The notes: generated by a model not told the origin, from the sequence alone. Shown: positions 28,233 to 57,970, numbered from the stretch's first letter. The stretch is 64,000 nt of DNA from an uncultured Candidatus Saccharibacteria bacterium (GCA_964471165.1 CAYYEX010000004.1:22378-86377), one strand, 5' to 3'. Program-made: numbers and translations.

Positions 28233-28628
28233 TTACCAAATCTCGAACAGAGCTTCGCCGCCGATTTTCTCTTTGCGCGCTTCTTTGTCGGTCTTGATTC
28301 CCTGTGGAGTTGAGAGGATGAGTGCACCGTGTCCGTAACGAACGCGAACGATTTCTCCTGCGCGCTTGTACATGCGGCGTCCTGGCTTGGAAATGCGCTT
28401 AACACCCTGGATGATGTGCTTGCCTTCGGAATCGTACTTGAGGGTAACGTCGAGGGTCTTCTTGACCTTCTTGCCCTTCTTTTCGATTGCTGCGATGAAA
28501 CCAGCCTCCTTGAGCTTCTCAGCGATTGCTGCCTTGAAGTTCGAGTATGGCAAAGAAACAACAGCGTGCTTAACAGCACCGGCGTTGGTGAGTCGTGTGA
28601 TGAAATCTGCTACAGGATCGGTGACCAT
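28233..28628 (-). CDS. rpsH: 30S ribosomal protein S8
   Basis: MVTDPVADFITRLTNAG from the ATG at 28628. The longer 28796 ORF is an upstream extension overlapping rpsN. Confidence 0.9.
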   Translation of the reverse strand: MVTDPVADFITRLTNAGAVKHAVVSLPYSNFKAAIAEKLKEAGFIAAIEKKGKKVKKTLDVTLKYDSEGKHIIQGVKRISKPGRRMYKRAGEIVRVRYGHGALILSTPQGIKTDKEARKEKIGGEALFEIW

Positions 28629-28629
28629 A

Positions 28630-28815
28630 TTACCAAGATGACTTCTTAACGCCTGGGATATTACCTTCGAGGGCCTCTTCACGGAAGCAGATGCGGCAGA
28701 GGTTGAAATCACGCATAAAACCGCGTGGGCGACCACACTTGAAACAGCGGCGTACCGTGCGCGAAGAGAACTTCGGAACGCGGTTTGCCTTAACAATCAT
28801 TGATTTCTTTGCCAT
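28630..28815 (-). CDS. rpsZ: 30S ribosomal protein S14 type Z (zinc-binding)
   Basis: 61 aa with [20 protein letters not shown]. Confidence 0.9.
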
Positions 28816-28988
28816 GTAGTTTGTTTAGCCCGCTAAGTGCGGGATGCTCGTGAAGGAAAGCTTGGGAGGCCTGCACCCTGCCTTTCGGCCTGGGTTATGG
28901 ACACTCCGCGGCGTAGGTCCTAGATTCTTGCGATATCCCTGGAACCCAGGAATCAGGCCAAAAAACGGACCTCCTGCGAGGCCTGAGA

Positions 28989-29017
28989 AATATACTCGAA
29001 AGGTACCGTGAAGTCAA
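28989..29017 (-). promoter_or_regulatory. Candidate sigma70-like promoter (TTGACT-17-TATATT) driving rpsZ-rpsH-rplF... downstream of the island insertion
   Basis: Minus-strand reading: TTGACTtcacggtacctttcgagTATATT. The ~170-nt leader to the rpsZ ATG contains several GC hairpins. Confidence 0.4.
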
Positions 29018-29038
29018 ACAATCGCTCCCGCCAGGCCA

Positions 29039-29602
29039 TTGACGCGACTCTGGAAGCACTGCATTGTGCTTGCAGTCAGGCGAGCGATGGAGATTGCAAT
29101 GTCGAACGGCACAAAGACGAAGTACCCCATTACGCGACGCGTTGCGTACACCGGTCTGCGCCCGAAGAGTGGCGGATACGTCAACCTAATTGTCGCGCTC
29201 ACGCGACGGGAGCAGGGCGACGATTCCGGCGAAGCGGACAAAAGGCCGCTTCTCGAGATCTTCTTCGAGGTCGGCTCAAAGGATTCGGATCCGGTTCGCG
29301 TATCGACCGATACCGTCCTCGAGTGGAGTGAATTGCCGCCCGTGCATCGCTTCCCCCTACGGTGGCGAAACATTCGCAAGTACATCGACCAAGGTATTAT
29401 GCCGGACGATGCGTATCTGCAGTCTGCCGTTGAGTTCCTCGTAACTTCAGGGACCTGGCGATTCAGTGCAAATCACAATGGTGACAGCGACGAGGTTGAG
29501 TTCACTGTGATCCGCCTCACCCCGCAGGTCGCCGTTACAGGCAAGGAATTGCTCTCGAAGCTGCCTGAATCCGCCGTCGAAATGGTCGATGAGGAGGAGT
29601 AA
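29039..29602 (+). CDS. hypothetical protein (start uncertain), convergent with the ribosomal protein genes
   Basis: ORF followed by a strong terminator hairpin; no motifs. Confidence 0.4.
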   Translation: MTRLWKHCIVLAVRRAMEIAMSNGTKTKYPITRRVAYTGLRPKSGGYVNLIVALTRREQGDDSGEADKRPLLEIFFEVGSKDSDPVRVSTDTVLEWSELPPVHRFPLRWRNIRKYIDQGIMPDDAYLQSAVEFLVTSGTWRFSANHNGDSDEVEFTVIRLTPQVAVTGKELLSKLPESAVEMVDEEE

Positions 29603-29619
29603 TCACCCTCATCGGGGCA

Positions 29620-29650
29620 CATCTTGCAACCGCGCGGACATCCGCGCGGC
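29620..29650 (+). terminator. Rho-independent terminator (CCGCGCGG-ACAT-CCGCGCGG then CTTTTGTTT)
   Basis: Self-complementary 8-bp GC stem plus a T-tract, 18 nt after the stop of 29039..29602. Confidence 0.5.
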
Positions 29651-29692
29651 TTTTGTTTACGCAGCATTTCTAAAAGAATAGGAAGATGGAAA

Positions 29693-29714
29693 ATATACCG
29701 ATATATCGGTATAT
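29693..29714 (-). terminator. Perfect palindrome ATACCGATAT|ATATCGGTAT followed by a T-rich run on the minus strand (terminator for the methyltransferase gene, or an operator)
   Basis: 10/10 inverted repeat, 35 nt downstream of the 29749 stop. Confidence 0.4.
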
Positions 29715-29748
29715 GTACGGTCTTGCTCAACATTTCCAACACTTGACC

Positions 29749-30531
29749 CTAGCTGAGTTTTTGCAGGTACATCGAGAAGGTGCGTCGTTTCCAGGCGCGT
29801 TCTTCCCCTATTTTGCCGCGGTTGATGTGCTTGTGAGATTTTACGACTTTGTGAATCTGGAAATACGGAGCAAAGAACTCTTTGGCGTCGTCTTCGGTCC
29901 ACACGTGTTCGTGTACGCCGATTTTCGGGTGTATGTATGCGCCGGGCTCGTCCGATGGATTTTCCTTGAGCAGGCGCTTGCTGTGCAAATCCTCGTCGGC
30001 AAGGAATGATTTGAAAAACAACCAGCCGTCGGGGCGCAGCACCCGCACGATTTCTTCGAGCAGCTTCTCGCGCTCTTCTTTGTGCAAGAAGTGCGAGGTC
30101 ATCATGTCGAGCGCGAGCGTTACCGAGCCGTCTTTTGCTGGGAGCGGGTCAGACATAGATTGCACCGAGAACTTAATCGGCAGGTCTTCTTTGTTGCGGT
30201 CGGCTTCCAAAATGGCCACTTCGGAGATATCAAAACCCTCTCCATGCATCCCGAAGTTGTTTGAAAGGTAGATGATATTGCGGCCGTTGCCGGTACCAAT
30301 GTCGAGCACTTTTGCGACCGGATTGAGGTACTTGCGGCCATGCTCGCGTTCAAGCCAGGTAATAAACTTTTCCAAGTCTTCGGACACATTCATAGAAAGC
30401 GCGAGGTGTTCGCTCGATTTGTACTCCTTGTTCCAGAAATCCTTGTGCTTTCCACCCCCCTGCTGCAGGCGAGTGGTCTGGCTTGGTTTTATCTTTTTTA
30501 CTTTTCTTCCCATATATTCAGATAGTAGCAA
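29749..30531 (-). CDS. class I SAM-dependent methyltransferase inserted between rplE and rpsZ
   Basis: VLDIGTGNGRN (motif I)...VLRPDGWLFF (post-II). Confidence 0.7.
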   Translation of the reverse strand: MLLSEYMGRKVKKIKPSQTTRLQQGGGKHKDFWNKEYKSSEHLALSMNVSEDLEKFITWLEREHGRKYLNPVAKVLDIGTGNGRNIIYLSNNFGMHGEGFDISEVAILEADRNKEDLPIKFSVQSMSDPLPAKDGSVTLALDMMTSHFLHKEEREKLLEEIVRVLRPDGWLFFKSFLADEDLHSKRLLKENPSDEPGAYIHPKIGVHEHVWTEDDAKEFFAPYFQIHKVVKSHKHINRGKIGEERAWKRRTFSMYLQKLS

Positions 30532-30567
30532 ACGAGCGCCTTTCGGCGCTCGTTTGTTTGCTTTTGT

Positions 30568-31098
30568 TTATTTCTGCAATGGCACTCCCAAATGTCGCAA
30601 GAACGCTTCTGCCTCTTTCTTGTTCTTGGCAGTGGTCGTAACTGTAACTGCAAGACCGAACACATCCTTTGCGTCTTCGTCGGAAGTTTCCGGGAAAACC
30701 GTGTGTTCCTTGAGACCGATGGTGATGTTGCCCATCTCGTCGATGGCGCTCACCTTGATACCACGGAAGTCTTTTACACGAGGGAGAACGATGTTCACAA
30801 GCTTGTCGAAAAACGACACCATGCGTGCGCCGCGAAGTGTTACCTGGAAACCAGAGAGGTCGCCGACACGTGTCTTGAAGTTCGCAATCGACTTCTTTGT
30901 GTTGCGCTTTACCGGAGCCTGGCCCGTGATTGTGGTGAGGCGGTCAAGAATAACTTCGAGCTTCTTCTTGTCTTTGATAGAACCAACACCAGTCGAGACG
31001 ATAAGCTTCTCGAGCTTTGGCGTCTGCATGATGTTCTTGTAGCCGAACTCACCCTTGAGGGCTGCGTGAGTATTTTTCTGAATAGTGTGTGCGTCCAT
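30568..31098 (-). CDS. rplE: 50S ribosomal protein L5
   Basis: YKNIMQTPKLEKLIVSTGVG... Confidence 0.95.
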   Translation of the reverse strand: MDAHTIQKNTHAALKGEFGYKNIMQTPKLEKLIVSTGVGSIKDKKKLEVILDRLTTITGQAPVKRNTKKSIANFKTRVGDLSGFQVTLRGARMVSFFDKLVNIVLPRVKDFRGIKVSAIDEMGNITIGLKEHTVFPETSDEDAKDVFGLAVTVTTTAKNKKEAEAFLRHLGVPLQK

Positions 31099-31102
31099 AT
31101 AT

Positions 31103-31414
31103 TTATTTGATGGCCTGGCCGCTCTTTACTGCGATTCGGCTGCGAACTCCCTTTTCGTCTCGCTTGATAGAAATACGAGATGGCTTGCCGGTCTTCGAGT
31201 CCACAATCATCACGTTTGATACGTGAATCGGCATCGGCTTGTCGATAATCTGGCCCGAGCGTGCCTGCTGTGTTGGCTTGCGGTGGCGCTTGCCCATGTT
31301 GACCCCGTCGATAATTACCTTATCGATTTTGGTGAACACCTGGGAAATCGCTCCGCTCTGACCCTTGGCCTTGCCGGCGATTACCATTACTTTGTCTCCT
31401 TTCTTGAGTTTCAT
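31103..31414 (-). CDS. rplX: 50S ribosomal protein L24
   Basis: MKLKKGDKVMVIAGKAKGQSG (KOW) from the ATG at 31414. The longer track ORF is an upstream extension. Confidence 0.9.
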   Translation of the reverse strand: MKLKKGDKVMVIAGKAKGQSGAISQVFTKIDKVIIDGVNMGKRHRKPTQQARSGQIIDKPMPIHVSNVMIVDSKTGKPSRISIKRDEKGVRSRIAVKSGQAIK

Positions 31415-31418
31415 ACAA

Positions 31419-31790
31419 TTACAGGATTTCTGGCGCGAGTGAGCCGATTTTCTGGTAGCCTCGTTCAATCACTTCGCGTGGGATTGGTCCGAATACGCGG
31501 TTTGCCTTTGGCTCCTTCTTGTCCTTTTCCACGAGCACAACTGCGTTTTCGTCGAAACGGATATACGAACCATCCTTGCGGCGGAATGCCTTCTTCTGGC
31601 GCACAACAACAGCGCGGTGAACGTCCTTCTTCTTTACAGCCTTACGAGGCTGTGCGCTCTGGATAGAAAGCACGACTTCGTCCCCGATTTCGGCATAGCG
31701 CTTCTTTGAGCCGCCGAGAATCTTGAACACACGTCCGATTTGTCCACCGGAGTTGTCTGCAATTTTTACGAGTGATCGGTCCTGCAACAT
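31419..31790 (-). CDS. rplN: 50S ribosomal protein L14
   Basis: MLQDRSLVKIADNSGGQ... Confidence 0.95.
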   Translation of the reverse strand: MLQDRSLVKIADNSGGQIGRVFKILGGSKKRYAEIGDEVVLSIQSAQPRKAVKKKDVHRAVVVRQKKAFRRKDGSYIRFDENAVVLVEKDKKEPKANRVFGPIPREVIERGYQKIGSLAPEIL

Positions 31791-31795
31791 ATAGC

Positions 31796-32053
31796 TTATT
31801 TAGTTTCGCCAGCACTTACGATGATGAAGCGCTTGAGCTTAGAAATCGGTCGAGTCTCCTTGATGGTTACCTTTGCACCCACCTCTACGGTGTTGCCTGG
31901 GTTGTGCACGAGGAACTTCTTGGAAAGGCGCATGTACTTCTTGTACTTCGGGTGCTTCACGTAGCGTTCAACCTGCACGGTTACCGTGTCTTTCATCGCC
32001 GCCTTTACGACAACGCCATCAAATGTCTTTCCTGTTGTGATTTTTGTTTCCAT
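31796..32053 (-). CDS. rpsQ: 30S ribosomal protein S17
   Basis: GKTFDGVVVKAAMKDTVTVQVERYVKHPKYKKY. Confidence 0.95.
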   Translation of the reverse strand: METKITTGKTFDGVVVKAAMKDTVTVQVERYVKHPKYKKYMRLSKKFLVHNPGNTVEVGAKVTIKETRPISKLKRFIIVSAGETK

Positions 32054-32057
32054 ACGC

Positions 32058-32258
32058 TTATTTGGTTTCGGTCTGGGCTACCTTACGTGAATTCATCTCT
32101 GTGAGCAACCGTGCGATTTCTTTTCGAAGTCCGCGGCCTTCGCGCACATTGCGTGTGCGAGTTCCAGCTTCACCGAAGCGGAACGTGCGAAGTGCCTCGC
32201 GCTTTGCTGCGATTTCCTTCTGCAAGTCTTCTATGCTCCATGATTTAAGTTCTGCCAT
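32058..32258 (-). CDS. rpmC: 50S ribosomal protein L29
   Basis: 66 aa; MAELKSWSIEDLQKEIAAKREAL. Confidence 0.9.
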   Translation of the reverse strand: MAELKSWSIEDLQKEIAAKREALRTFRFGEAGTRTRNVREGRGLRKEIARLLTEMNSRKVAQTETK

Positions 32259-32275
32259 ATATCTTTCCTATATTT

Positions 32276-32701
32276 TTACTGGGCTCGTGCAACGATTCGT
32301 ACCTTGAGCGGAAGTTTTGTGCCTGCCTTGCGGAGTGCCTCACGTGCCATTGCCTCTGGTGCACCATCGATTTCAAAAAGCACACGTCCCGGACGAACGT
32401 CGAACACGTATCCTGCCAAATCACCCTTACCAGAACCCATGCGTACTTCTGCTGGCTTCTTGGTGAATGGTCGGTCAGGGAAAATGCGAACCCAAATCTT
32501 GGCACTCTTGCCTGCTGCGCGCGAAAGTGCGCGGCGGGCTGCCTCAATCTGATTGCTCGTTACGCGGTGCTGGCTCATCGCCTTCAAACCGAATGAACCG
32601 AATGCCACGGTGATGCCGCGGGTATCCGGAGCAACACGACGGTCGCCTCGTCGGCGCGCGTTTTGCCACTTTCGGTGTTTAACTTTTTTAGGTGCCAACA
32701 T
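32276..32701 (-). CDS. rplP: 50S ribosomal protein L16
   Basis: MLAPKKVKHRKWQNARRRGDRR... Confidence 0.95.
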   Translation of the reverse strand: MLAPKKVKHRKWQNARRRGDRRVAPDTRGITVAFGSFGLKAMSQHRVTSNQIEAARRALSRAAGKSAKIWVRIFPDRPFTKKPAEVRMGSGKGDLAGYVFDVRPGRVLFEIDGAPEAMAREALRKAGTKLPLKVRIVARAQ

Positions 32702-32707
32702 ACAAAT

Positions 32708-33382
32708 TTATTGATCCTTCTTGTCGAAGATGTCGCCGCGGTAAATCCATACCTTGACCCCGATGACGCCGTATGGGAGATATGCCTTTTCCTTCGCAAA
32801 GTCGATGTCTGCGCGCAATGTCTGCAACGGTACACGACCGCGCTTAATTTCCTCTGAACGAGACATTTCTGCTCCCCCCAAGCGGCCAGAGATACCGATG
32901 CGCACACCCTGTACGTCGCGGTTTGCCATTACCTTTTCTACCGTCTGCTTGAGCACGCGGCGGAACGTCTGGCGCTTCTCCAAGCCCTCGGCAACCATGT
33001 ATGCAACAACCGGTGCCTGTGACTCTGGTGAGCGAACTTCCTCGATGTCGATACGTACGAGCGACTTGCCCTTTGGTGCACCCTTTACGGTTCCAACAAC
33101 TTTTTCGACTTCTTTGACGAGCTTCTGGCTCCCCTCTCCTCCACGACCGATAACGAGACCCGGGCGAGATGTCTTGATGAGAATGCGGATGGTGTTCTGT
33201 GCGCGTTCGATTTCAACAGACGTTACGAACATGCCGCGAAGACGCTTCGTGAGGAAGCGGCGGATGGTCGTGTCAATCATCACGTTGGTGCGGTATTCGA
33301 GCGGCGACTTAGCAAACCAGCGCGACTTCCAGTCACGAATGATGCCGAGGCGATGTGCGTATGGATGTACTGTGTGTGTCAT
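32708..33382 (-). CDS. rpsC: 30S ribosomal protein S3
   Basis: MTHTVHPYAHRLGIIRDWKSRWFA...KH domain. Confidence 0.95.
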   Translation of the reverse strand: MTHTVHPYAHRLGIIRDWKSRWFAKSPLEYRTNVMIDTTIRRFLTKRLRGMFVTSVEIERAQNTIRILIKTSRPGLVIGRGGEGSQKLVKEVEKVVGTVKGAPKGKSLVRIDIEEVRSPESQAPVVAYMVAEGLEKRQTFRRVLKQTVEKVMANRDVQGVRIGISGRLGGAEMSRSEEIKRGRVPLQTLRADIDFAKEKAYLPYGVIGVKVWIYRGDIFDKKDQ

Positions 33383-33388
33383 AAAAAA

Positions 33389-33844
33389 TTATTCGCTCTT
33401 TGCTGCTGCTTTCTTTGCTACCTTCTTTGCTGCACTCTTCTTTGCTGCCTTCGGCTTTTCCTCACCAGTTACTTCAGCAACCTTTTTTGCCTTCTTCGCA
33501 GGTACAGCAGGCGCTGCATTGTGTGAACCAAGCTCGAGGGTGACGATAGAAAAGGTCTTTGCGTAGCGTGCTGCGCGACCACGTGCCTTTGGCATAAAGC
33601 GGCGCATTACCTGACCCTTATTGACTGCGATTGCCTTCACAAAAAGACTCTCAACCTCCTGACCGTTGTTCTGTACTGCGTTTGAAACGGCAGAGTTGAG
33701 GAGCTTCAACATAGTTGGTGAAGACTTCTTTGGGAGATATGCGAGCGCCTGACGAGCTGCATCAATAGACTTACCGCGAATCAAGTCCGCAACGAGGCGC
33801 ACTTTGCGCGGTGATTGATTGTAGTTTTTAAGAAGCGCTTTCAT
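33389..33844 (-). CDS. rplV: 50S ribosomal protein L22 with a K/A-rich C-terminal extension
   Basis: MKALLKNYNQSPRKVRLVADLIRGK... Confidence 0.95.
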   Translation of the reverse strand: MKALLKNYNQSPRKVRLVADLIRGKSIDAARQALAYLPKKSSPTMLKLLNSAVSNAVQNNGQEVESLFVKAIAVNKGQVMRRFMPKARGRAARYAKTFSIVTLELGSHNAAPAVPAKKAKKVAEVTGEEKPKAAKKSAAKKVAKKAAAKSE

Positions 33845-33853
33845 ACGAGAGTT

Positions 33854-34192
33854 TTATTTCTTTGCTGCACCTGTTGCGGCCTTTGCAGCCTGTGCAGTAG
33901 CGATTTCCTGCTGTTTAGCAGCCTGTTCTGCCTCCTTCTGCATCTTGCCTCCGTGTCGTACGAATCGGGTCGTCGGAGCAAATTCACCGAGCTTGTGGCC
34001 AACCATGTCTTCGGAAACGAATACGGAATCGAAGTTCTTCCCCGTGTGCACCAAGAAGGTATAGCCCACAAATTCAGGAGCAATGGAGCTTGCGCGCGCC
34101 CACGTCTTAATACCACCGTCATTCGGCTTGCGAGCAGACACCTTTTTGAGGAGTTTCTCGTCTACGTATGGGCCCTTTTTTGCGCTTCGCAT
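33854..34192 (-). CDS. rpsS: 30S ribosomal protein S19 with an A/K/Q-rich C-terminal extension
   Basis: [18 protein letters not shown]...[13 protein letters not shown]. Confidence 0.95.
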
Positions 34193-34234
34193 ATACTTTT
34201 TATTTGGTCAATTGAAAACCCGCGTCTTGCGGGA

Positions 34235-34271
34235 GTCCGTGCAATTTATACGAAGTACTCTCTAATGTCAA
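34235..34271 (-). promoter_or_regulatory. Candidate promoter for rpsS and downstream genes (TTGACA-15/16-TATAAAT), created by or retained at the island junction
   Basis: Minus-strand reading: cagTTGACAttagagagtacttcgTATAAAttg. A small hairpin CCCGC-GTCTT-GCGGG lies in the leader at 34209-34224. Confidence 0.45.
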
Positions 34272-34290
34272 CTGTTTTCGGCCTAAAACG

Positions 34291-34327
34291 GAGGTCCTGT
34301 TGCAGAGTTATATATTTGTGGTATAAT
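34291..34327 (+). promoter_or_regulatory. Candidate divergent promoter (TTGCAG-16-TGgTATAAT, extended -10) for the island genes
   Basis: TTGCAGagttatatatttgtggTATAAT about 30 nt upstream of the ATG at 34358. Confidence 0.45.
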
Positions 34328-34357
34328 GGAACCCGTTTAACCCCAACGAGGCACCCC

Positions 34358-34780
34358 ATGCGCATCGGTATTCTAGGGCTTTTTCTGGTCCTTTTAGGTC
34401 TCTCGCCAGTTCAGGCGCAGCAGGCCTATATGCACAACGGCAGCACGATGACGGTCACCGTATCGGGCAAGTCCGTCGAAATCAGCTACCTCTCCCCTCG
34501 GGCCGGTTTGCCTGTTCAATCAGGCACCCGCTTGTTCGAGGGAGGAGTCAACGAATACAGCCGCAAAATCGAAGGCACGGCGTGGATTTTCCACAGCCGA
34601 TGCAACCGGGCCTACTCGTACTGGGTGGTCGGCGACTTCGAAAACGGCGACGCACAGCTCCACCTGGTAGGTGCAGCACCGGTCGTAGACCCGCGCACCT
34701 GTCTCGTCGTCGGACACTCGCGGGAAAGCGCGAATGCGCATCTCTTGTTCCACAACGACTGCGAAACCATCGTCGAATAA
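34358..34780 (+). CDS. small secreted protein (signal peptide), hypothetical
   Basis: MRIGILGLFLVLLGLSPVQAQQ signal peptide, supported by the promoter upstream. The 33815 track start is an antisense extension over rpsS. Confidence 0.5.
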   Translation: MRIGILGLFLVLLGLSPVQAQQAYMHNGSTMTVTVSGKSVEISYLSPRAGLPVQSGTRLFEGGVNEYSRKIEGTAWIFHSRCNRAYSYWVVGDFENGDAQLHLVGAAPVVDPRTCLVVGHSRESANAHLLFHNDCETIVE

Positions 34781-34954
34781 TCGATGCAGGGGTTCGCTCA
34801 GAAACTCAAAAGCCTCGGTACGTCCCGGGGTTTTTTGTTTTAAACAAATGCCCGGCACGAGTGCCGAGGGCTTTTGTTCATTGCTTCTGTCTTTTTTGCG
34901 TCCTCGTGTTAGATTCACGAATAGCTGATGGCAGCTTGTGAGGGAGACGAAACA

Positions 34955-35305
34955 ATGCCGAGCTCTGCTTTGGATGTGGCACTTCTGAACGCCGACGGAC
35001 TCACGGCACGAATCCACCGTTACGTTCTGTTCTGCGTGAAGGACGGCAACGGAAGTGTTCGGTACATCGTACGTACCGCACCGCGCGAAGAGCCCTGTGG
35101 CGCGATTATTCAGCGCCTTGGTGACGAGATTCCCTGCATGGACATTACGCCGCTTGGCGGCGGCGAGTTCTCCTACCGCCCACATGATTGCAATATCATT
35201 CTGTTCGGCGGGACAAGCCCCGACATTGAGCGCGAGGACGACCGGGCCGCATCCGCCGCCATTTTCCAGCGCGCGCTCGGATTCCACACCTGCACCCTGC
35301 CGTAA
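34955..35305 (+). CDS. hypothetical protein (116 aa)
   Basis: GAGGGAG 9 nt upstream of the ATG at 34955; followed by a terminator hairpin. Confidence 0.4.
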   Translation: MPSSALDVALLNADGLTARIHRYVLFCVKDGNGSVRYIVRTAPREEPCGAIIQRLGDEIPCMDITPLGGGEFSYRPHDCNIILFGGTSPDIEREDDRAASAAIFQRALGFHTCTLP

Positions 35306-35337
35306 CCTGCTCCCCTCGCACTCGCGAGCGCACGAAC

Positions 35338-35372
35338 ATGAAGACCCGCTTGCACGGGTCTTCACGCTTTTA
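35338..35372 (+). terminator. Rho-independent terminator (GAAGACCCG-CTTGCA-CGGGTCTTC then ACGCTTTT)
   Basis: Perfect 9-bp stem followed by a T-tract. Confidence 0.5.
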
Positions 35373-35489
35373 TGAATTGTACCTGCCGCTTCCGGTACGT
35401 ACCGGGACTTGTGGCGTCCCTGGAATGATGGTGCTATGGTCTCGTAAGGGGAAATATAGAGAAACGGGGCTACAGAAAGGGTCCGAACC

Positions 35490-36533
35490 ATGCGTTTCAA
35501 TCACGCAGCATCATTTTTCGCCGCGGTCCTGGGTGCACAACTCTACAGCCGCAAAGCGAACAAGCGCCTCTCGGACAAGCTCTCGCTTGAGTTAGACCGA
35601 CGTCAGGCGCGCGACGAACTGCCACCGCGCGAGGTGGACCTCCAGCTCTTGCACAACAAGTTCATGCGGTTCAGGCCGCGACTCATCGGTGCAGTGGGAG
35701 CGTACTGCCTCCTGAGCGGACAACATCATCCAGATGTCGTTCAAAACGGGGGGTTGGATTTGTTCCGCACCATGTGGTACCTCGGTGCAACACAGGACGA
35801 CCTTATCGACGAAATTCCCTCGCAAAACGGCATCGAGCGCAGGCACGTCGAGCTCAGAATCCGCGACGCGATGTTTGGTACGGACCGTACCATCTATCGC
35901 GCGGCGTTGCGCGTGTTCTCGGACGACCTGTCACGGAGTGACTTCCCGCCCGAAGCCCAGCAGTATCTGCGACGCAAAGTGCGTGACTGGTACCGGTTCC
36001 TCGTCGAGCAGGAGGCAAAGGTACTCACGATGCACTCGTCGGAACTCGGTTACTGGGAGTGTCGCCGATACCGCGAGGAGCAGAACATGCGCGTGGCGAA
36101 ATTGCTCACCGCATGCCTCAATGGCCGGCGTTGTCACGAACCGGAGATGCAGGTGCTCGAGACGCTGGTACCTATGCTCTCGTTCCGGACGCAAATCATC
36201 GACGACGTCGCCGACGTCTTCGAAGACCTCGCAATGGGTCGCCCGAGTTTTTGCATGGGCGCACTCAACGACAATCCGCACGAACTGCACAACGTTCGGG
36301 AGTTCGCACGAAAGAATCCGCGCGTGAAGAAGATGCAGGTGCAGCTTTTTCGAAAGCTCGCACCAAAAAGTGCATCCCTCATCGAGTCGACCTACGACCA
36401 GTACGGCGCGGATCTGCGGACACGCAGCGAACCGTTTGTGCTGCTCGCGACAGTCGGCGACATGTTGTACCGCTGGTTCCCGACGTTTCGAGATGCCATC
36501 TACCGTCTCCAGCCGCGTTGGGCAAACTTCTAG
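35490..36533 (+). CDS. isoprenoid synthase-fold protein, squalene/phytoene synthase-like
   Basis: Two Asp-rich motifs about 130 aa apart: YLGATQDDLIDE and IIDDVADVFEDLAMGRPSF. Compare CrtB/SQS DDxxD and DV.ED...GR.Y.P. GC-rich gene. Confidence 0.5.
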   Translation: MRFNHAASFFAAVLGAQLYSRKANKRLSDKLSLELDRRQARDELPPREVDLQLLHNKFMRFRPRLIGAVGAYCLLSGQHHPDVVQNGGLDLFRTMWYLGATQDDLIDEIPSQNGIERRHVELRIRDAMFGTDRTIYRAALRVFSDDLSRSDFPPEAQQYLRRKVRDWYRFLVEQEAKVLTMHSSELGYWECRRYREEQNMRVAKLLTACLNGRRCHEPEMQVLETLVPMLSFRTQIIDDVADVFEDLAMGRPSFCMGALNDNPHELHNVREFARKNPRVKKMQVQLFRKLAPKSASLIESTYDQYGADLRTRSEPFVLLATVGDMLYRWFPTFRDAIYRLQPRWANF

Positions 36534-37324
36534 CCTCGCAGAAATGCGAGTATGGGGGCAAGGAACGCTGACGGCTGCTCTATGTGCACAAGATGACCCG
36601 CATCCGGTATGACAACGAGTGTCGAGCCGGCAATGCGCAACTGAATACGCGACCCGATACTCACTGCAGTAATCGGGTCGCTTTTTCCATATATGAGTAG
36701 TGTTTTTGCCTTCACTCTCGAGAAAATGGTGTCATCGCCTTTCTGGTGCGTGCGCATGTATACGGCCAGCATTCGCTTTCCGTGTTCACGTTCGACTCGT
36801 GCGTTATCGGCAAACTCCCGCGGGGTGAGAAATGTTTTATGCATATAGAAAAGAAATCCTGGCATAAGCCTGCCTACCGTGTGAATGATTGCCGTATTGA
36901 GTTTTCGAAACCAACCGACTCGATTCCAGTCACCCATTGATACAAGAAGAAGTTTTGGAGCGCCAAATGTAGCAGCATACGAGAGCGCCACGCGCGCACC
37001 AAACGAGTGTCCGAGTACCGCGTAGGGAGACAGCGAGAGCGCTTCACAAAACGAATGTACGAACTGCGCGTATTCTTCAATCGACCAGGCACTCGGCGGT
37101 GCTTCGCTCATCCCGAAGCCTGGCATATCAAGCGCATATACCGTGTATTCTTGCGCAAGATTGGATATCACCCCGCGCCATGTCACTGCACTCTGTGCCC
37201 ACCCATGCACGAGGATGAGCGCCGGACCTGTGCCAACAGAAAGGTACCTGGTAGTGAGTCCCCCTATGACGACTGTTCGGTATGAAGGGGTCTCTTGCAT
37301 GTATATCAAAATATGATGCCTCAA
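36530..37324 (-). CDS. alpha/beta-fold hydrolase
   Basis: ILVHGWAQS...AVLGHSFGARVAL (GxSxG nucleophile elbow)...PDAGHLVHIEQP. Confidence 0.75.
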   Translation of the reverse strand: MRHHILIYMQETPSYRTVVIGGLTTRYLSVGTGPALILVHGWAQSAVTWRGVISNLAQEYTVYALDMPGFGMSEAPPSAWSIEEYAQFVHSFCEALSLSPYAVLGHSFGARVALSYAATFGAPKLLLVSMGDWNRVGWFRKLNTAIIHTVGRLMPGFLFYMHKTFLTPREFADNARVEREHGKRMLAVYMRTHQKGDDTIFSRVKAKTLLIYGKSDPITAVSIGSRIQLRIAGSTLVVIPDAGHLVHIEQPSAFLAPILAFLRG

Positions 37325-37340
37325 GGACTTTATGTCGAGG

Positions 37341-37378
37341 CCAAAAAGAACGGTCCGCCTGTGGCGGACCGTTCTTTT
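37341..37378 (-). terminator. Strong bidirectional terminator immediately downstream of rplB (AAGAACGGTCCGCC-TGT-GGCGGACCGTTCTT flanked by A5/T5)
   Basis: 14-bp perfect stem, 7 nt after the rplB stop. It separates rplB from rpsS, which are normally co-transcribed. Confidence 0.6.
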
Positions 37379-37384
37379 TGTTGA

Positions 37385-38227
37385 TTATTTTCGTTTGCCG
37401 ACTTTTCGACGAGTGACAACGAAGACGTTTGAGTACTTCTTTGGTCGGCGAGTCTTTTGACCCTTGCCGGACGGCTTACCCCACATCGTTCGCTGTCGTC
37501 GGTGACCGCGACCCTGCTTACCTTCACCTCCACCGTGTGGGTGGTCAACTGGGTTCATAACCGTTCCTCGAACTGTCGGGCGAATGCCCATCCAGCGAGA
37601 GCGACCTGCTTTTCCGATTACCACGAGGCGATGTTCGTCGTTGGATACTTCGCCCACACATGCCCATGCGGTTGAGATAACACGGCGCACTTCGGTGCTT
37701 GGCATTTTGAGGTGCGTGTAACCTGCGTCTTGCGCAACAACTTCTGCGTAGTTACCTGCAGAACGTGCAATTGATGCCTTAACTCCTGGCTGGATTGATA
37801 CGTTGTAAACAAATGTACCAACCGGCATGTTGCCGAGTGGAAGACGGTTTGCTGTCTTCATTGGTGCAGTTTCAGAAACGATGAATGTATCGCCGACTTT
37901 CACTTTCTTTGGGAGCACAACGTAGCGCTTTTCACCGTCCTTGTAGACTGCAAGACCGATGAATGCAGAGCGGTTCGGGTCGTACTCGATGGTCGCAATT
38001 TTTGCCTCGATGTTCTTCTTGTCGAACACAAAGTCAACATTTCGGTATTTGCGCTTGTGTCCACCGCCATGATGACGGGTCGTGATGCGACCGAATGAGT
38101 TGCGGCCTCCTGTTGAGCGCTTGCCCTTCAAGAGCGACTTCGTTGGCTTATCGCCGGAGAGAAGCTTGCTATATTCGATGCGCGTCATGCCGCGCGTACC
38201 TGGTGTGACTGGTTTAAGGTGTTTCAT
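37385..38227 (-). CDS. rplB: 50S ribosomal protein L2
   Basis: MKHLKPVTPGTRGM...GGGHKRKYR...HPHGGGEGK. Confidence 0.95.
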   Translation of the reverse strand: MKHLKPVTPGTRGMTRIEYSKLLSGDKPTKSLLKGKRSTGGRNSFGRITTRHHGGGHKRKYRNVDFVFDKKNIEAKIATIEYDPNRSAFIGLAVYKDGEKRYVVLPKKVKVGDTFIVSETAPMKTANRLPLGNMPVGTFVYNVSIQPGVKASIARSAGNYAEVVAQDAGYTHLKMPSTEVRRVISTAWACVGEVSNDEHRLVVIGKAGRSRWMGIRPTVRGTVMNPVDHPHGGGEGKQGRGHRRQRTMWGKPSGKGQKTRRPKKYSNVFVVTRRKVGKRK

Positions 38228-38228
38228 A

Positions 38229-38594
38229 TTATGAGATGGTGATGCTGTCTCCGCTCTTGAGGTAGACGTATGCCTTCTTGCCGCCGCCCTTCATGCCGGT
38301 CTTTCCAGTGCGCGCGTGACGAACGGACTTCATCGGGATGGTAACCGTGCGAATCATTCGCGGCGTTACCTTGTAGAGCTGGTGAACCGCACGAATGATG
38401 TCGCGCTTGGTTGCACGCTCAGAGATGTTGAAAGTGTAGACCTTTGCATCTGAGTGCATCGTTGCCTTCTCTGTGATGCGTGCGTGAGAGAGGATGTGCG
38501 AGAGGTCGCGCTGAGCACCAGATACTTTTTCAGTCGTCGCGACTGCATCCGCTTTCTTGGTCGTCTTTTTTGTTTTGCTTGAGAAGAGTGCCAT
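38229..38594 (-). CDS. rplW: 50S ribosomal protein L23 (N-terminal basic extension; start uncertain)
   Basis: ILSHARITEKATMHSDAKVYTFNISERATKRDIIRAVHQLYKV. Confidence 0.9.
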   Translation of the reverse strand: MALFSSKTKKTTKKADAVATTEKVSGAQRDLSHILSHARITEKATMHSDAKVYTFNISERATKRDIIRAVHQLYKVTPRMIRTVTIPMKSVRHARTGKTGMKGGGKKAYVYLKSGDSITIS

Positions 38595-38606
38595 ATAGAT
38601 TTCGGT

Positions 38607-39305
38607 TTATTTCGCCTGGGTTGCCTTTTCGAGCTTTGCCTTTGATGCGCGCTTTGAAATTGCACTCACTGATTCAGTTGGGTTTTCAATCACGATGTAC
38701 TTGTATTTGAGCACGTTTACCGGGTTGAGGTTTGAGACGTTCTCGAATGTTACAGAGCCGATGTTGCGGAAGCTCTTCACCGATGCGTCTGACTTATCCG
38801 TAGATGCAATGAGTGCAAGATTCTGTTTCTTTGTTCCCGAGAGCTTCTCGAAACCCTTCACGCTCGAGAGTGCGATGAGTGCCTTCTTTGCTTCTGCTGT
38901 CTTTGGAGCCTTGAAGCCGAACGAATCGACGAACAAGAGTTCACCGTCGCGCATTTTCTGAGAGAGTGCAACAAAGAGAGCCTTTGCGCGCATCTTCTTC
39001 GGGATTTCGCGACCGAAAACCTTTTCGTTGCGAGGGCCGTGCGTTACACCGCCTCCCTTCCAAATCGGAGAACGAGATGAGCCGTGACGAGCGCGGCCGG
39101 TTCCCTTCTGCTGCCATGGCTTCTTACCGCCTCCGCGAACTTCGCCGCGACCCTTGGTGTGAGCAACATTGGTGCGGGCATTTGCCTGCATCGATACAAC
39201 TACCTGGTGAATGAGTGCTGCATTCCACGGAAGGTCGAATACGTTCTCAGGGAGCGTCACTTCGCCTGCCTTTTTACCCTTGATGTCGAAAATATCTGTT
39301 TTCAT
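38607..39305 (-). CDS. rplD: 50S ribosomal protein L4
   Basis: PWNAALIHQVVVSMQANAR...GGGKKPWQQKGTGRARHGS. Confidence 0.95.
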   Translation of the reverse strand: MKTDIFDIKGKKAGEVTLPENVFDLPWNAALIHQVVVSMQANARTNVAHTKGRGEVRGGGKKPWQQKGTGRARHGSSRSPIWKGGGVTHGPRNEKVFGREIPKKMRAKALFVALSQKMRDGELLFVDSFGFKAPKTAEAKKALIALSSVKGFEKLSGTKKQNLALIASTDKSDASVKSFRNIGSVTFENVSNLNPVNVLKYKYIVIENPTESVSAISKRASKAKLEKATQAK

Positions 39306-39314
39306 AGTATTGAA

Positions 39315-39932
39315 TTAGCCGCGAATCTCGATGAGTGTACCAGGGCGACCTGGCAATGCACCTGAAATGAGAATCTGATTGTTTGCGGCATCTACCTGGA
39401 GTACACGAAGGTTCGTGACCGTAACACGGTCGTTACCCATGCGTCCTGCCATGCGCATCCCCTTTACCACGCGGCCACCTGCGCGACCACCGCCACCGAT
39501 GCTTCCTGGAGCGCGCTCCTTGTTTTTCTGACCGTGTGAGCGAGGACCGCCGGAAAATCCGTGTCGCTTTACGACACCCTGGAAGCCCTTACCCTTGGAG
39601 ATTGCAGAAACCTGCACAACATCTCCAGGAACAAAAATTGAAATATCGATGGTATCTCCGCGCTTGAGTTCTCCTGCTTCCTGTCGGTTTTCGCGGATGA
39701 ATCGTGCGCTTGGGAGGTCCTTTAGGTGGCCCATAACGGCCTTACCGAGATTCTTTGCGGCGCGGGTGCCCATGCCGAGTTGCACTGCATCGTAGCCGTC
39801 CTTTTCCTTACCCTTTACCTGGGTAACGGTGAGCGGACCAGCAGAAACGATAGTTGCAGCAGAAACAACACCCTTCTCGTCGAAGACCTGTGTCATTTTG
39901 CCCTTGGTTCCGAGCATGAATTTGCCTGCCAT
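39315..39932 (-). CDS. rplC: 50S ribosomal protein L3
   Basis: MAGKFMLGTKGKMTQVFDEKG from the ATG at 39932. There is no rpsJ upstream within this window. Confidence 0.9.
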   Translation of the reverse strand: MAGKFMLGTKGKMTQVFDEKGVVSAATIVSAGPLTVTQVKGKEKDGYDAVQLGMGTRAAKNLGKAVMGHLKDLPSARFIRENRQEAGELKRGDTIDISIFVPGDVVQVSAISKGKGFQGVVKRHGFSGGPRSHGQKNKERAPGSIGGGGRAGGRVVKGMRMAGRMGNDRVTVTNLRVLQVDAANNQILISGALPGRPGTLIEIRG

Positions 39933-40104
39933 AATATCTATTGTTTGTTTTGCAAAAAAATTGACCCGCATAGCGAGCCGTGCCTTCGAGGATTCGAAGA
40001 TAAGTTCGCCAGTGGTCCCCGACCGGTATGCCGGAGGGACTTGGGTTGAGGCAGTATACGGAACTATGAGAAATATGCAAATCCGGCCTTAGTTGGGCGG
40101 TAGC

Positions 40105-40563
40105 TCAGGAGTGCGTATGAATAGACTCAATAGTCGGGGGAACGATACCGTGTTTATGGTGGCGGTGCAGCATGGCGCTGATGAACAATATAAGGAGTGC
40201 CGAAGTCACTCCGAGCCCTACAGGAATCGTGTAGTCATTGCCCCCGAAGCCAAATATAGCGTTTATCGAACAAAGAAACCCACACTCCCCGGAGCTCGAG
40301 CCAGTCGTTGCCTCGGCAGGTTGCCAAGTGATGTCGGATGCGGTTACCCCCTGCTGTGATGCCGCCTGTGCGAGGGATGCAACCATCGCATCCACCTGTG
40401 CGCTCGGGATACTGGCGGAGCGTGGGTCTTTCATTATTTCGGCGCGGATTGCCTCGGAGAGACCTGCGGACTGCGCACCCACAAGCAGTGGGAGTGAAAG
40501 AATAGCGGCTGCACACAATGCCCCGAACTTAAATGTGTCTTTCATAAAAATATTAGTTACCAA
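40105..40563 (-). CDS. small secreted / membrane-anchored protein (signal peptide, C-terminal TM, His-rich end)
   Basis: FKFGALCAAAILSLPLLVGAQSA signal; C-terminal hydrophobic helix, then HRHHKHG. Confidence 0.4.
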   Translation of the reverse strand: MVTNIFMKDTFKFGALCAAAILSLPLLVGAQSAGLSEAIRAEIMKDPRSASIPSAQVDAMVASLAQAASQQGVTASDITWQPAEATTGSSSGECGFLCSINAIFGFGGNDYTIPVGLGVTSALLILFISAMLHRHHKHGIVPPTIESIHTHS

Positions 40564-41434
40564 ACTGACCCGCTGGCTGGTACCACGTCGGAATTACGTT
40601 CACGCTCTTTGTTTCAGTGATTGTGCTTGGAGTGCCTCCGACAAGTGCGCGACAGAAGAGGGTGTAATCGGTTCGGCTTGTAATTGGGCTGGTGGTCATT
40701 CCAGTAGCACCTGAACCGAGCATGTTCCACTCCCCAGTAATACTCCCGGCTGCTCCGTCGCCGTTGGAACCGCGAACGGTGCAATCGCGTACATTTGATA
40801 CGTTCCAGAACACATAAGTCACGTCGCCCGCGCGAACGATTCCCGGCTGCACCTGCAAATGTCCGGATGCGTTGAATCCTCTTGTAGTCGCGAATCCTAT
40901 GAAATGCGGATTACCGTCAGGTGGAACGCATGTGTTACCCACTTTTGTGTATCCAGTAGGACAAGCCGGACAATTACCCGTAGTTGGATTTGGGGTAGAA
41001 CCATCCCAACACGAGTTCGGGGCATATGTTCCAGTGTATGAACCAGTGCCCGGGGTGTATGAGCCGGTGCCTGTCGGATACGAGCCGGTGCCCGGAGTGT
41101 ATGAGCCGGTGCCCGGAGTGTATGAGCCGGTGGTTGGGTCGTATGAACCCGTGGTTGGGTCGTATGAACCCGTGGTTGGGTCGTATGAACCGGTAACAGG
41201 AACGTATGAACCGGTAACAGGAACGTATGAAGCAGTGACTGTGCCGCCAGAGGCGGGAACCATTTGAAGTCCCGACGGGCTTTCGTCGGAAAACTGTGTT
41301 TCGACCGACAGCTCAACAGTGCGAGCAGACGAGTAGTTGAATAAGAGATATGCTGCGGCAAAAATCGCAAAGGCACTCACAATAAATCGACTATAGTCGC
41401 TGATGCGTAACGACTTCTTCGCATGTCGGGACAT
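40553..41434 (-). CDS. membrane-anchored protein with tandem heptapeptide (TGSYxP-type) repeats and a Cys-containing C-terminal domain
   Basis: TGSYVPV x2, TGSYDPT x3, TGSYTPG x3 and further variants; N-terminal TM anchor. Confidence 0.55.
   Translation of the reverse strand: MSRHAKKSLRISDYSRFIVSAFAIFAAAYLLFNYSSARTVELSVETQFSDESPSGLQMVPASGGTVTASYVPVTGSYVPVTGSYDPTTGSYDPTTGSYDPTTGSYTPGTGSYTPGTGSYPTGTGSYTPGTGSYTGTYAPNSCWDGSTPNPTTGNCPACPTGYTKVGNTCVPPDGNPHFIGFATTRGFNASGHLQVQPGIVRAGDVTYVFWNVSNVRDCTVRGSNGDGAAGSITGEWNMLGSGATGMTTSPITSRTDYTLFCRALVGGTPSTITETKSVNVIPTWYQPAGQFGN
41029..41240. repeat. About ten 21-bp tandem repeats encoding the heptapeptide array
   Basis: Directly visible: ccggtgcccggagtgtatgag x2, cccgtggttgggtcgtatgaa x3, ccggtaacaggaacgtatgaa x2 and further units. 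Confidence 0.8.
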
Positions 41435-51390: not shown

Positions 51391-51636
51391 TCAGCCGGCG
51401 CGACGCGGCTTGCCGCTCACCGGGGTTGCAGCGGGCTGCTTGTTCAGCTTCGCGTTCTCGCACGATGCGTTGGCGCGACTGGGCGAGAGGCGCGGATTCT
51501 TGTTCATCTTGCACTGCGAGCACTGCATCATCGGCATCTTCGCGCACTGCGCGAAGGCGACGGTGGGCGCGCCGATTGATGACGCTGCGTAGACAACTGC
51601 TCCAGCGAGCAGGCCGAGGAACGATTTTCTCATAGT
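51391..51636 (-). CDS. small secreted Cys-containing peptide (81 aa precursor, about 50 aa mature)
   Basis: GGGAGGA 8 nt upstream of the ATG at 51636. Signal peptide MRKSFLGLLAGAVVYAASSIGAPTVAFA, then QCAKMPMMQCSQCKMNKNPRLSPSRANASCENAK... The track start at 51750 is an extension. Confidence 0.45.
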   Translation of the reverse strand, partial: TMRKSFLGLLAGAVVYAASSIGAPTVAFAQCAKMPMMQCSQCKMNKNPRLSPSRANASCENAKLNKQPAATPVSGKPRRAG

Positions 51637-51777
51637 GGAATCCTCCCTGGTCGGACGCGATGGATATCCATCGACACATCTCCGATACCGATTTACACGG
51701 TACCCCGCTTGACGATATGTGTCAAGAGCGTCCAAGCACCGATTTGGCATTGGGGCGTATCATGCGAAGATTGCCCC

Positions 51778-57388: not shown

Positions 57389-57970
57389 TCAGTGCTCGTG
57401 CTTGTGGCCGTGATGGTGCCCATGCCCGTGGTCGTGACTGTGGTCGCTCGGATGCTTCATCCTGTCCGGCGCGTTCACGTCCTTGTGCGGATGCCCGAAA
57501 GCGATGATGACCAGCGGTTCCCGCGCGGTTTCCGGCGGACCGGTCACCGCATGCGGGTGTTCACCCGGGATGAACATGGTGTCACCTGGCCCGACAACCC
57601 GGTCCTCCCCGCTGATGTGGACAGACCCGACACCCGAGAGAAACAGCAAGACATGGTCGCCGACATGCTCGTGGAGCGCAAAGGCGCTCCCCGGCTGCAT
57701 CTCGATGCAATCCACACCGATGTCGGTTCCATCAACCTTCATGCCGACCGCGCCCATGCGTCCGCGAATGCCCTTGAGCGGCTTGCCGTCCGAATCATAC
57801 ATCTCGGACAAGTCGCCCTTCAATACATTTCGCAGATGCTGACCGTCAATCCACTTGCGTGCTGCTGCACGCATTGCCGCAACTTGAACCGATTCCACCG
57901 GCACCTCCATTGATTCGAAACCCAATCCGGTTTCCGTGCGCAGTATGCACAATATGACCTCATATTTCAA
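57389..57970 (-). CDS. cupin-domain protein with a His-rich C-terminal tail (HDHGHGHHHGHKHEH)
   Basis: Cupin motifs G(X)5HxH...(E)...G...P.G..H (HEHVGDHVLLFLSG...MFIPGEHPHAV); the His tail suggests metal binding. Start uncertain. Confidence 0.55.
   Translation of the reverse strand: MKYEVILCILRTETGLGFESMEVPVESVQVAAMRAAARKWIDGQHLRNVLKGDLSEMYDSDGKPLKGIRGRMGAVGMKVDGTDIGVDCIEMQPGSAFALHEHVGDHVLLFLSGVGSVHISGEDRVVGPGDTMFIPGEHPHAVTGPPETAREPLVIIAFGHPHKDVNAPDRMKHPSDHSHDHGHGHHHGHKHEH

Follow-up and report, generated by a model that had tools for sequence, protein, structure and literature searches.

A variable seam between rplB and rpsS in the ribosomal protein cluster of a Kaiserbacteria-like bacterium, and the enzyme pair that it carries

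The gene order of the S10-spc ribosomal protein cluster is held to be nearly invariant, and the proteins that it encodes are standard markers for the placement of bacteria of the candidate phyla radiation (CPR). How, then, do four other genes come to lie inside this cluster, and from which signals would the ribosomal protein genes behind them be expressed? This question is raised by a 64,000-nucleotide stretch of DNA (GCA_964471165.1, CAYYEX010000004.1:22378-86377; the window, always meaning the whole stretch), in which the ribosomal protein genes rplB and rpsS are separated by 3,192 nt (34193-37384, the region under study) with four open reading frames (ORFs). An earlier interpretation, made from the sequence alone and referred to here as the sequence-only reading, took these genes for a GC-rich island that had been inserted into the S10 operon and had split it, after which rpsS was re-promoted. 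Comparison with related genomes favours another explanation, which we consider probable: the interval is a pre-existing seam of this lineage whose cargo is exchangeable, and the cargo present here includes a module formed by a prenyltransferase-fold protein and a hydrolase. Paceibacterota lineages would thus carry variable, promoter-equipped seams in a cluster taken to be constant.

The rplB-rpsS interval in the window and in its relatives

rplB (uL2; 37385-38227, minus strand; Pfam Ribosomal_L2_N/C, 8e-32 and 3e-46) is the last gene of an upstream ribosomal sub-operon, rplC-rplD-rplW-rplB, which is located on the minus strand with rplC at 39971-39315. rpsS (uS19; 33854-34192, minus strand; Pfam Ribosomal_S19, 5e-30) heads the next sub-operon, in which rplV, rpsC, rplP, rpmC, rpsQ, rplN, rplX and rplE (31098-30568) follow, all on the minus strand. 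Between them lie one minus-strand gene encoding a hydrolase and three plus-strand genes, encoding proteins of 140, 116 and 347 aa, that converge on the hydrolase gene. A putative intrinsic terminator after rplB (37342-37380, minus strand) begins 4 nt past the stop codon and is formed by perfect 18-nt arms with a 12-bp G+C-rich core bounded by A5/T5, a 3-nt loop and a T-run. A perfect inverted repeat of 18 nt is expected by chance about 1e-7 times per 4 kb, and the folding energy (dG) of the 107-nt stretch after rplB, terminator included, is -43 kcal/mol. The hairpin is bidirectional in appearance, yet a gene whose transcription it could end precedes it in the minus direction only, and no plus-strand gene enters it. 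At the other end of the interval, a predicted rpsS promoter (34243-34271, minus strand) reads TTGACA (34271-34266), N15, TATAAAT (34250-34244), or N17-TAAATT in the reading of the scan. About 9-11 nt past its -10 box, and 26 nt before the rpsS ATG, stands a leader hairpin (34215-34233, minus strand; CCCGC-aagac-GCGGG followed by UUUU). The combination that characterises intrinsic terminators, a G+C-rich hairpin with an immediate U tract, is thus apparent both at 37342-37380 and at 34233-34215. Back to back with the rpsS promoter lies a putative divergent promoter for the cargo (34300-34327, plus strand), with TTGCAG (34300-34305), N16 including an extended -10 TG, and TATAAT (34322-34327). The interval with its terminator, four ORFs and back-to-back promoters had been described in the sequence-only reading, and all these features are present in the sequence; only the dimensions of the terminator, given there as a 14-bp stem 7 nt after rplB, needed correction.

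The rplB-rpsS distance was measured in 80 loci obtained by a uL2 search in one genome per GTDB species. The nearest rplB relatives are all metagenome-assembled genomes (MAGs) of Paceibacterota, Kaiserbacteria or Parcubacteria, with identities to the window of 91% in L006, 87% in L034, 81% in L041, 79% in L007 and 73% in L010, and the source organism is an uncultured Candidatus Paceibacterota bacterium, Kaiserbacteria-like (Patescibacteria/CPR). In 42 loci of non-Patescibacteria, mostly Coriobacteriia, the two genes are 28-57 nt apart. Patescibacteria are represented by two loci with 12-16 nt, eight with 85-165 nt, eight with 240-1,000 nt, ten with 1.0-5.3 kb, and five in which rpsS was not found within 6 kb downstream of rplB. 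Gaps of 85 nt to over 6 kb were measured in about 30 Paceibacterota relatives, and the cargo in them is unrelated, e.g., a DgkA-type kinase, an aminotransferase, pyrF/pyrE/pyrD, an IS200-type transposase, secreted proteins of 1,000-1,400 aa and small ORFs. None of the four genes of the window was detected at the seam in these approximately 30 loci (tblastn, 1e-5), including the relatives with 91%, 87% and 79% rplB identity, and this absence supports the view that the four genes represent a lineage-specific insertion.

DNA comparison with the closest relatives locates the breakpoints. L007 is an empty site: nothing but terminator, promoter and leader occupies its 162-nt gap, and its homology to the window extends through rplB and the terminator as far as 37343 and resumes at 34254. 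For L034 the homology ends at 37375 and resumes at 34329, and for L006 the corresponding positions are 37386 and 34328, so that the right-hand breakpoint of their homology falls just beyond the -10 box of the divergent promoter. What lies between the breakpoints, 1.6 kb in L034 and 0.85 kb in L006, is unrelated to the window, and three small ORFs are common to the cargo of these two genomes. Because the homology covers the divergent promoter, this promoter appears to belong to the conserved frame, while the genes that it would drive have been exchanged. Separately, an IS200-like Y1 transposase gene is located in the seam of L026 (10043-10735), so mobile elements do land in the seam.

The layout upstream of rpsS is common to about 21 Paceibacterota loci, including empty sites of 99-162 nt. 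It consists of TTGAC(A/T), a spacer of 16-17 nt (15-17 nt in the window's subgroup) and TAnnAT, followed after 6-11 nt by a G+C-rich hairpin of 5-8 bp (loop of 3-6 nt) and a U tract located 9-75 nt before the start codon. Under one fixed search rule, hairpin and T-tract were found in 18 of 25 loci with a -35-like site, against 0.61 expected from dinucleotide shuffles. The stem is CCCGC/GCGGG in the window's group and AGCTC/GAGCT or GGGCT in most others, and further variants (CGGCC/GGCCG, CCCAA/TTGGG and GCTCC/GGAGC) keep the pairing. MAFFT lost the register of these short stems across subgroups, and pair types were therefore tabulated by script; the resulting covariation table is biased, as the hairpins were picked for pairing and few of the changes are independent, and the shuffle control is the stronger evidence. 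Since promoter and hairpin are kept in relatives, empty sites included, the seam is probably ancestral and only its cargo specific to this genome. A break with its own promoter that predates the cargo also means that rpsS would not have been re-promoted in response to the insertion, and this part of the sequence-only reading is not supported. The insertion that it proposed holds for the cargo, which entered an operon that was apparently already split; the comparison of synteny that it had called for reveals a break common to the relatives, and thus ancestral, with a spacing and a cargo that are not common to them.

A recent, horizontally acquired island that broke an intact S10 operon, with rpsS rescued by a new or island-borne promoter, would explain why the cargo is absent in all relatives examined, why a strong terminator follows rplB and a near-consensus promoter precedes rpsS, and why three of the four genes are atypical in composition. 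These three, the plus-strand genes (34358-36533), have a GC content of 0.58-0.60 and a GC content at third codon positions (GC3) of 0.69-0.73, about 2 to 2.7 standard deviations above the mean of 70 gene-sized ORFs of the window (GC 0.52 +/- 0.03, GC3 0.56 +/- 0.06); this GC3 speaks for a foreign origin of the three genes. The hydrolase gene is host-like in both measures (0.528 and 0.529), and the description of the whole island as GC-rich therefore applies to its plus-strand genes only. The broken-operon model is contradicted by the rpsS promoter and leader hairpin of the roughly 21 island-free relatives. With homology to L007 restarting inside the promoter region, the junction expanded throughout the lineage, and the divergent promoter common to genomes with other cargo, we regard this model as unlikely. 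The opposite idea, that the four genes have been at the junction from the start and were lost in the relatives, the arrangement being old and no insertion, takes up the age of the seam itself and the host-like GC of the hydrolase gene. It fits poorly with the failure to find even one of the four genes at this position in about 30 Paceibacterota loci, with homologous enzyme pairs located in unrelated contexts (murD/murC, DnaJ/EamA and others), with the deviating GC3 of the plus-strand genes and with the different cargo common to L006 and L034, and is if anything slightly less credible. An artefact of assembly or binning that joined foreign DNA into the ribosomal operon, conceivable for a metagenomic source with composition shifts within the region, is highly improbable. 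A 298-kb MAG contig (ENA ERZ27247837) and two separate Logan assemblies of other runs have this very arrangement, each with both junctions, and the agreement of three independent assemblies shows that it is not a chimera; the flanks, moreover, are collinear with relatives exactly as far as the seam.

Several observations nevertheless weigh against a pre-existing seam with exchangeable cargo, or limit what it explains. Apart from the bias of the covariation table, the promoters and terminators are predictions drawn from consensus and conservation, and a generic scan gave the region no excess of promoter-like or terminator-like sites over shuffled sequence. L006 and L034 are more similar to one another than to the window, a relationship compatible with either order of cargo in the window/L006/L034 clade. 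The host-like GC of the hydrolase gene beside an atypical partner is awkward for a simple recent co-transfer. The insertion also lacks the marks of a mobile element, there being no integrase or transposase among the four ORFs, no tRNA gene in the window and no flanking direct repeats other than short pairs at chance level (e.g., 34217-34231 and 37720-37734, about 0.3 expected). Finally, the family of the 347-aa protein resembles no characterised enzyme significantly in sequence, and its chemistry is deduced from fold, motifs and neighbours.

The rpsS leader and a second seam before rpsN

The conserved hairpin with its U tract has the form of an intrinsic terminator, and in L009, L010 and L037 it is the sole terminator-like element between rplB and rpsS. 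It could accordingly be merely the terminator of upstream sequence, with no role in rpsS expression. We consider this possible but doubtful, because the start of the hairpin is fixed 6-11 nt past the -10 box in about 20 genomes, which makes it necessarily the 5' end of the rpsS transcript, because an extra strong hairpin is already present after rplB in the window, L007, L034, L006 and L022, and because the same layout is found again before rpsN. Terminator and leader roles are in any case compatible. Terminators located very near a promoter are less efficient, and transcripts initiated at this promoter could pass. The leader elements had no Rfam 15 match at the gathering score in the window, where no Rfam family was found at all, and no relevant match at E<=1 in 28500-40200.

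The 64-kb window contains the promoter-hairpin-U motif at only two places, ahead of rpsS and ahead of rpsN (28815-28630). The second occurrence belongs to a similarly built seam that separates rplE from rpsN (28816-30567, minus strand; 1,750 nt) and contains an S-adenosylmethionine (SAM) methyltransferase gene (29749-30531, minus strand) and a GC-rich ORF (29099-29602, plus strand). The putative rpsN promoter TTGACT-N17-TATATT (29017-28989, minus strand) is followed by a hairpin and U tract (28983-28968, minus strand) and then by a structured leader of about 150 nt. The rplE-rpsN gap measures 178-1,865 nt in the relatives L007-L010, L019, L022-L024 and L037, in which promoter and leader are conserved, and 43 and 19 nt in the other Patescibacteria L040 and L063, respectively. 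RNAalifold predicts a conserved helix set for five Kaiserbacteria-like rpsN leaders (28816-28985 of the window and L007-L010), with 10 of 21 pairs keeping their pairing through changes on both sides in these five sequences. The predicted core reads ...CCATAACC..GGCCGAAAGGC..GGTGCAGG... and has no Rfam match; it is a candidate for a new ribosomal-protein leader, perhaps of uS14 or uS8.

Other features of the ribosomal cluster were recorded along the way. uS19 has an Ala/Lys-rich C-terminal tail (33854-33940), an extension that has been described for Parcubacteria (PMC9297842), and uL22 (33389-33844) has a comparable Lys/Ala-rich tail. Upstream of rplC (39972-40563) rpsJ, encoding S10, is not present; the genes beside rplC (40105-40563 and 40553-41434) have products that belong to no Pfam family, and one of these products is rich in Thr/Gly/Ser/Tyr repeats. 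The rplC leader, with TTGCAT-N16-TATACT and then a G+C-rich hairpin without U tract, is unlike those of rpsS and rpsN. ORFs as atypical as the plus-strand cargo genes (GC3 about 0.69-0.72) are located at 51391-51750 (minus strand), 57389-57970 (minus strand) and 29039-29602 (plus strand), and may be further recently acquired genes.

The 347-aa protein, its hydrolase partner and the small cargo genes

The largest of the cargo genes, the 347-aa ORF (35490-36533, plus strand), encodes two DDxxD motifs. These lie in DDLID (residues 103-107) and DDVADVFED...GRPSF (238-254), which the sequence-only reading had rightly pointed out and whose acidic residues are conserved in homologues. A word-indexed search of 5.8 billion proteins yielded 5 relatives, and a profile search of 1.84 billion cluster representatives yielded 79, of which 31 at E<=1e-30. 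In 30 family sequences D103, D107, E175, R195, Q235, D239, D242 and D246 are invariant, and D104, Y194-E196-Q198, L210-N211, D238 and P252-S253 are conserved in at least 90%; the family motifs are QDDxID, YREEQN, LLNG and QIIDDxxDxxED...RPS. An AlphaFold model on six sequences (pLDDT 87, pTM 0.86) is all-helical and places the acidic motifs at the C-terminal ends of the long helices 89-107 and 218-241. The top Foldseek matches in the PDB are trans-prenyl diphosphate synthases only (probability 1.0, TM about 0.5), and a viral fold library returned only weak trans-prenyltransferase matches. As modelled, the protein combines the all-alpha terpenoid-synthase fold with two conserved acidic motifs, the features of class I isoprenoid synthases, and DDLID and DDVAD correspond to the DDx2-4D and DDxxD of trans-isoprenyl diphosphate synthases. 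Fold and motifs thus support its membership in the class I isoprenoid-synthase superfamily, and its nearest kind, judged from the model, is a head-to-tail or atypical prenyltransferase.

The sequence-only reading had proposed a head-to-head enzyme of the squalene/phytoene-synthase (SQS/PSY) type. This shares the superfamily fold, and by eye DVFEDLAMGRPSF resembles the motif DVGED...GR(x)Y(x)P of phytoene synthases. The match to PF00494 that was expected for 35490-36533 did not appear: neither PF00494 nor PF00348 matched the window protein or any of the 30 family members at E<=1. SQS/PSY proteins are also not among the best structural neighbours, and their superficially similar second acidic motif is DxxxD, not DDxxD as in the 347-aa protein. 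The superfamily part of the proposal stands, and the head-to-head part is quite unlikely. The closest known systems are the trans-isoprenyl diphosphate synthases of PF00348 (solanesyl-, octaprenyl- and geranylgeranyl-PP synthases) and the atypical MoeN5 and DabA. From the PF00348 synthases the family differs by having no significant sequence similarity, by lacking RRG after the first motif, and by adding the invariant YREEQN/LLNG and a constant pairing with an alpha/beta hydrolase. A comparison of the family profile with PDB sequences remained at chance level (CTB10, E 0.06; second Asp-rich motif of octaprenyl-PP synthase, E 0.36). In P0074, a distant relative of 770 aa from the search of cluster representatives, a bona fide polyprenyl_synt domain (48-277) is fused to a C-terminal domain (495-678) recognised by the profile of the 347-aa family; an hhalign comparison of the family with this polyprenyl_synt domain was not significant (probability 0.1). 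The fusion hints that the 347-aa family may act downstream of a prenyl diphosphate synthase.

The partner gene encodes an alpha/beta-fold serine hydrolase of 256 aa (36530-37300, minus strand) with a full-length Abhydrolase_1 match (5e-29), as the sequence-only reading had assigned it. A nucleophile elbow, GHSFG (GxSxG), accompanies the PF00561 fold. The protein has no NCBIfam equivalog at cut-off and resembles only generic esterase, meta-cleavage-hydrolase and PHB-depolymerase relatives. The stops of the two genes overlap by 4 nt (CTAG). An alpha/beta hydrolase is the immediate neighbour of the 347-aa family in all 14 contexts in which both flanks are readable: the genes are convergent in the window, L098/L099, L095, L100 and the P0003 contig, co-directional in L004, L087 and L088, and divergent in L005, L090, L092, L093, L094 and L096/L097. 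The L098 pair has the identical 4-nt convergent stop overlap, and none of the other contexts is in a ribosomal operon. The closest homologues of the hydrolase among the 5.8 billion proteins, P0086 (50%) and P0087 (41%), are each encoded convergently to a homologue with 46% identity to the 347-aa protein. The carriers range from 33 to 55% GC, and the GC of the pair follows that of the host. Conserved across these contexts, enzyme and hydrolase behave as a co-inherited two-gene module. Genes for soluble DAGK_cat-type lipid kinases, a DgkA-type kinase and UbiE-like methyltransferases are also found repeatedly in the neighbourhood. In the P0003 contig a Y1 transposase gene is located about 8 kb from the enzyme pair.

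DgkA-type genes are also found at the seam. A gene for a DAGK_prokar lipid/undecaprenol kinase lies in the seam of five relatives (L016, 7069-7461; L025, 10036-10428; L032, 9820-10215; L035, 3194-3580; L039, 8161-8568), where in four cases the rpsS promoter comes next and in L039 other genes intervene; in L091 a DAGK_prokar gene is located directly 3' of the gene for a homologue of the 347-aa protein. These positions may link seam cargo to lipid metabolism. Given that CPR bacteria are regarded as incapable of membrane lipid synthesis (PMC7242380) and that the seam of several relatives contains a DgkA-type kinase gene, our preferred guess, a tentative one, is that the enzyme pair salvages or remodels an isoprenoid carrier or membrane lipids.

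The two small plus-strand genes are GC-rich. Homologues of the 140-aa ORF (34358-34780) are absent from every relative locus examined; its N-terminus resembles a Sec-type signal peptide (MRIGILGLFLVLLGLSPVQA, then QQ), which is putative and was judged by reading the sequence. The 116-aa ORF (34955-35305; 125 aa from an alternative ATG at 34928) is annotated as a gene in the source assembly, and its coding status is putative. It has no homologue but itself among the 5.8 billion proteins and only a sub-threshold Pfam match (Ocnus/Janus, E 0.009). Scans of Pfam and NCBIfam gave no family for the 140-aa, 116-aa or 347-aa protein. Terminator-like hairpins follow the 140-aa ORF (34808-34835, plus strand) and the 116-aa ORF (35339-35364, plus strand). 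A weak promoter-like site before the hydrolase gene (37310-37338, minus strand; TCGACA-N17-CATATT, 9/12 matches), not conserved elsewhere, is speculative. A 326-aa minus-strand ORF (34520-35500) was rejected as spurious, as it has no Pfam match and overlaps two plus-strand genes with a promoter, terminators and higher GC3.

A model of the seam and its known parallels

In the model that we propose for the pre-existing seam, the ribosomal cluster is not a single S10 operon and would be cut into sub-operons at the non-canonical positions rplB/rpsS and rplE/rpsN. Each cut would have a terminator on its upstream side and, downstream, a sigma-70-type promoter with a hairpin and U tract within 6-11 nt. 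Transcription from rplC would end at the rplB terminator, and rpsS and the later genes would use their own promoter. The seam is thought to tolerate insertions because the flanking essential genes no longer need read-through, and it would in this way gather different cargo in different genomes. In the window/L006/L034 clade, the divergent promoter back to back with the rpsS promoter would drive whatever cargo is present; here it would express the 140-aa gene, and the remaining cargo genes would rely on their own signals. The cargo of about 3.0 kb would then comprise two small GC-rich genes without relatives, one apparently secreted and each with a terminator, and the two-gene module. The leader hairpin and U tract would block read-through from rplB or from the cargo and, as the first part of the rpsS mRNA, may either stabilise the transcript as a 5' stem-loop or attenuate it. 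The 347-aa protein is envisaged as a Mg2+-dependent enzyme that uses prenyl diphosphates and works with the esterase/lipase-type hydrolase, joined elsewhere by a lipid kinase and a methyltransferase, and the module would plausibly serve lipid salvage or remodelling in an organism unable to make its own lipids. More speculatively, Paceibacteria may have rebuilt their ribosomal cluster into several sub-operons, each headed by a new kind of cis-element (promoter, hairpin and U tract, joined before rpsN by a covarying leader of about 120-150 nt) that would serve as insulator or autoregulatory attenuator. The seams would then be gene-capture slots with a strong resident divergent promoter for their cargo, and the cargo of the window would represent a new enzyme family, in which a protein of prenyltransferase fold cooperates with a serine hydrolase and through which lipid-auxotrophic CPR bacteria salvage isoprenoid carrier lipids or remodel them.

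Such seams bear on operon prediction, on binning and checks of marker contiguity, and on the stoichiometry of ribosomal proteins without co-transcription. Among the side results, the candidate leader RNAs and the enzyme-hydrolase module promise most for further study. The promoter-proximal hairpins and the covarying rpsN leader are candidates for new regulatory RNAs in a phylum without genetics. The pair of 347-aa protein and hydrolase represents an uncharacterised and confidently modelled family within the isoprenoid-synthase superfamily, present in organisms thought to be lipid auxotrophs, and thus a target for biochemistry. In the literature searched, the coverage of which is incomplete, no report was found of an rplB/rpsS seam in CPR bacteria or of the 347-aa enzyme family.

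The elements of the seam have parallels in known systems. Stem-loops at the 5' end stabilise bacterial mRNAs, e.g., that of the ompA 5' untranslated region, and the rpsS hairpin is likewise a stable hairpin a few nt from the predicted 5' end; however, the conserved U tract that follows it would be superfluous for a pure stabiliser. As a terminator-like hairpin with a U tract in a 5' leader conserved within a lineage, it also resembles the L4-controlled attenuator of the E. coli S10 operon and other ribosomal-protein leaders (PMC3616713). It differs from the S10 attenuator in its size of 5-8 bp and in its location at the very 5' end and before rpsS instead of rpsJ, and, unlike ribosomal-protein leaders in general, it has no known protein partner or Rfam family, so that its regulatory role is putative. 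For Gammaproteobacteria and Bacilli it is documented that small sets of genes have invaded the stretches between operons of the ribosomal super-cluster (PMC8046335). The case described in 2019 (PMC6735719) is alike in that small sets of unrelated genes occupy the gap between transcription units and in that the inserts are lineage-specific while the order of the flanking genes is otherwise kept. In contrast to these known invasions, the seams of the window lie inside the canonical S10 (rplB/rpsS) and spc (rplE/rpsN) operons and in Patescibacteria, the rplB/rpsS seam is marked by a conserved promoter and a hairpin/U-tract leader, and its cargo has been exchanged even between genomes whose uL2 proteins are 87-91% identical.

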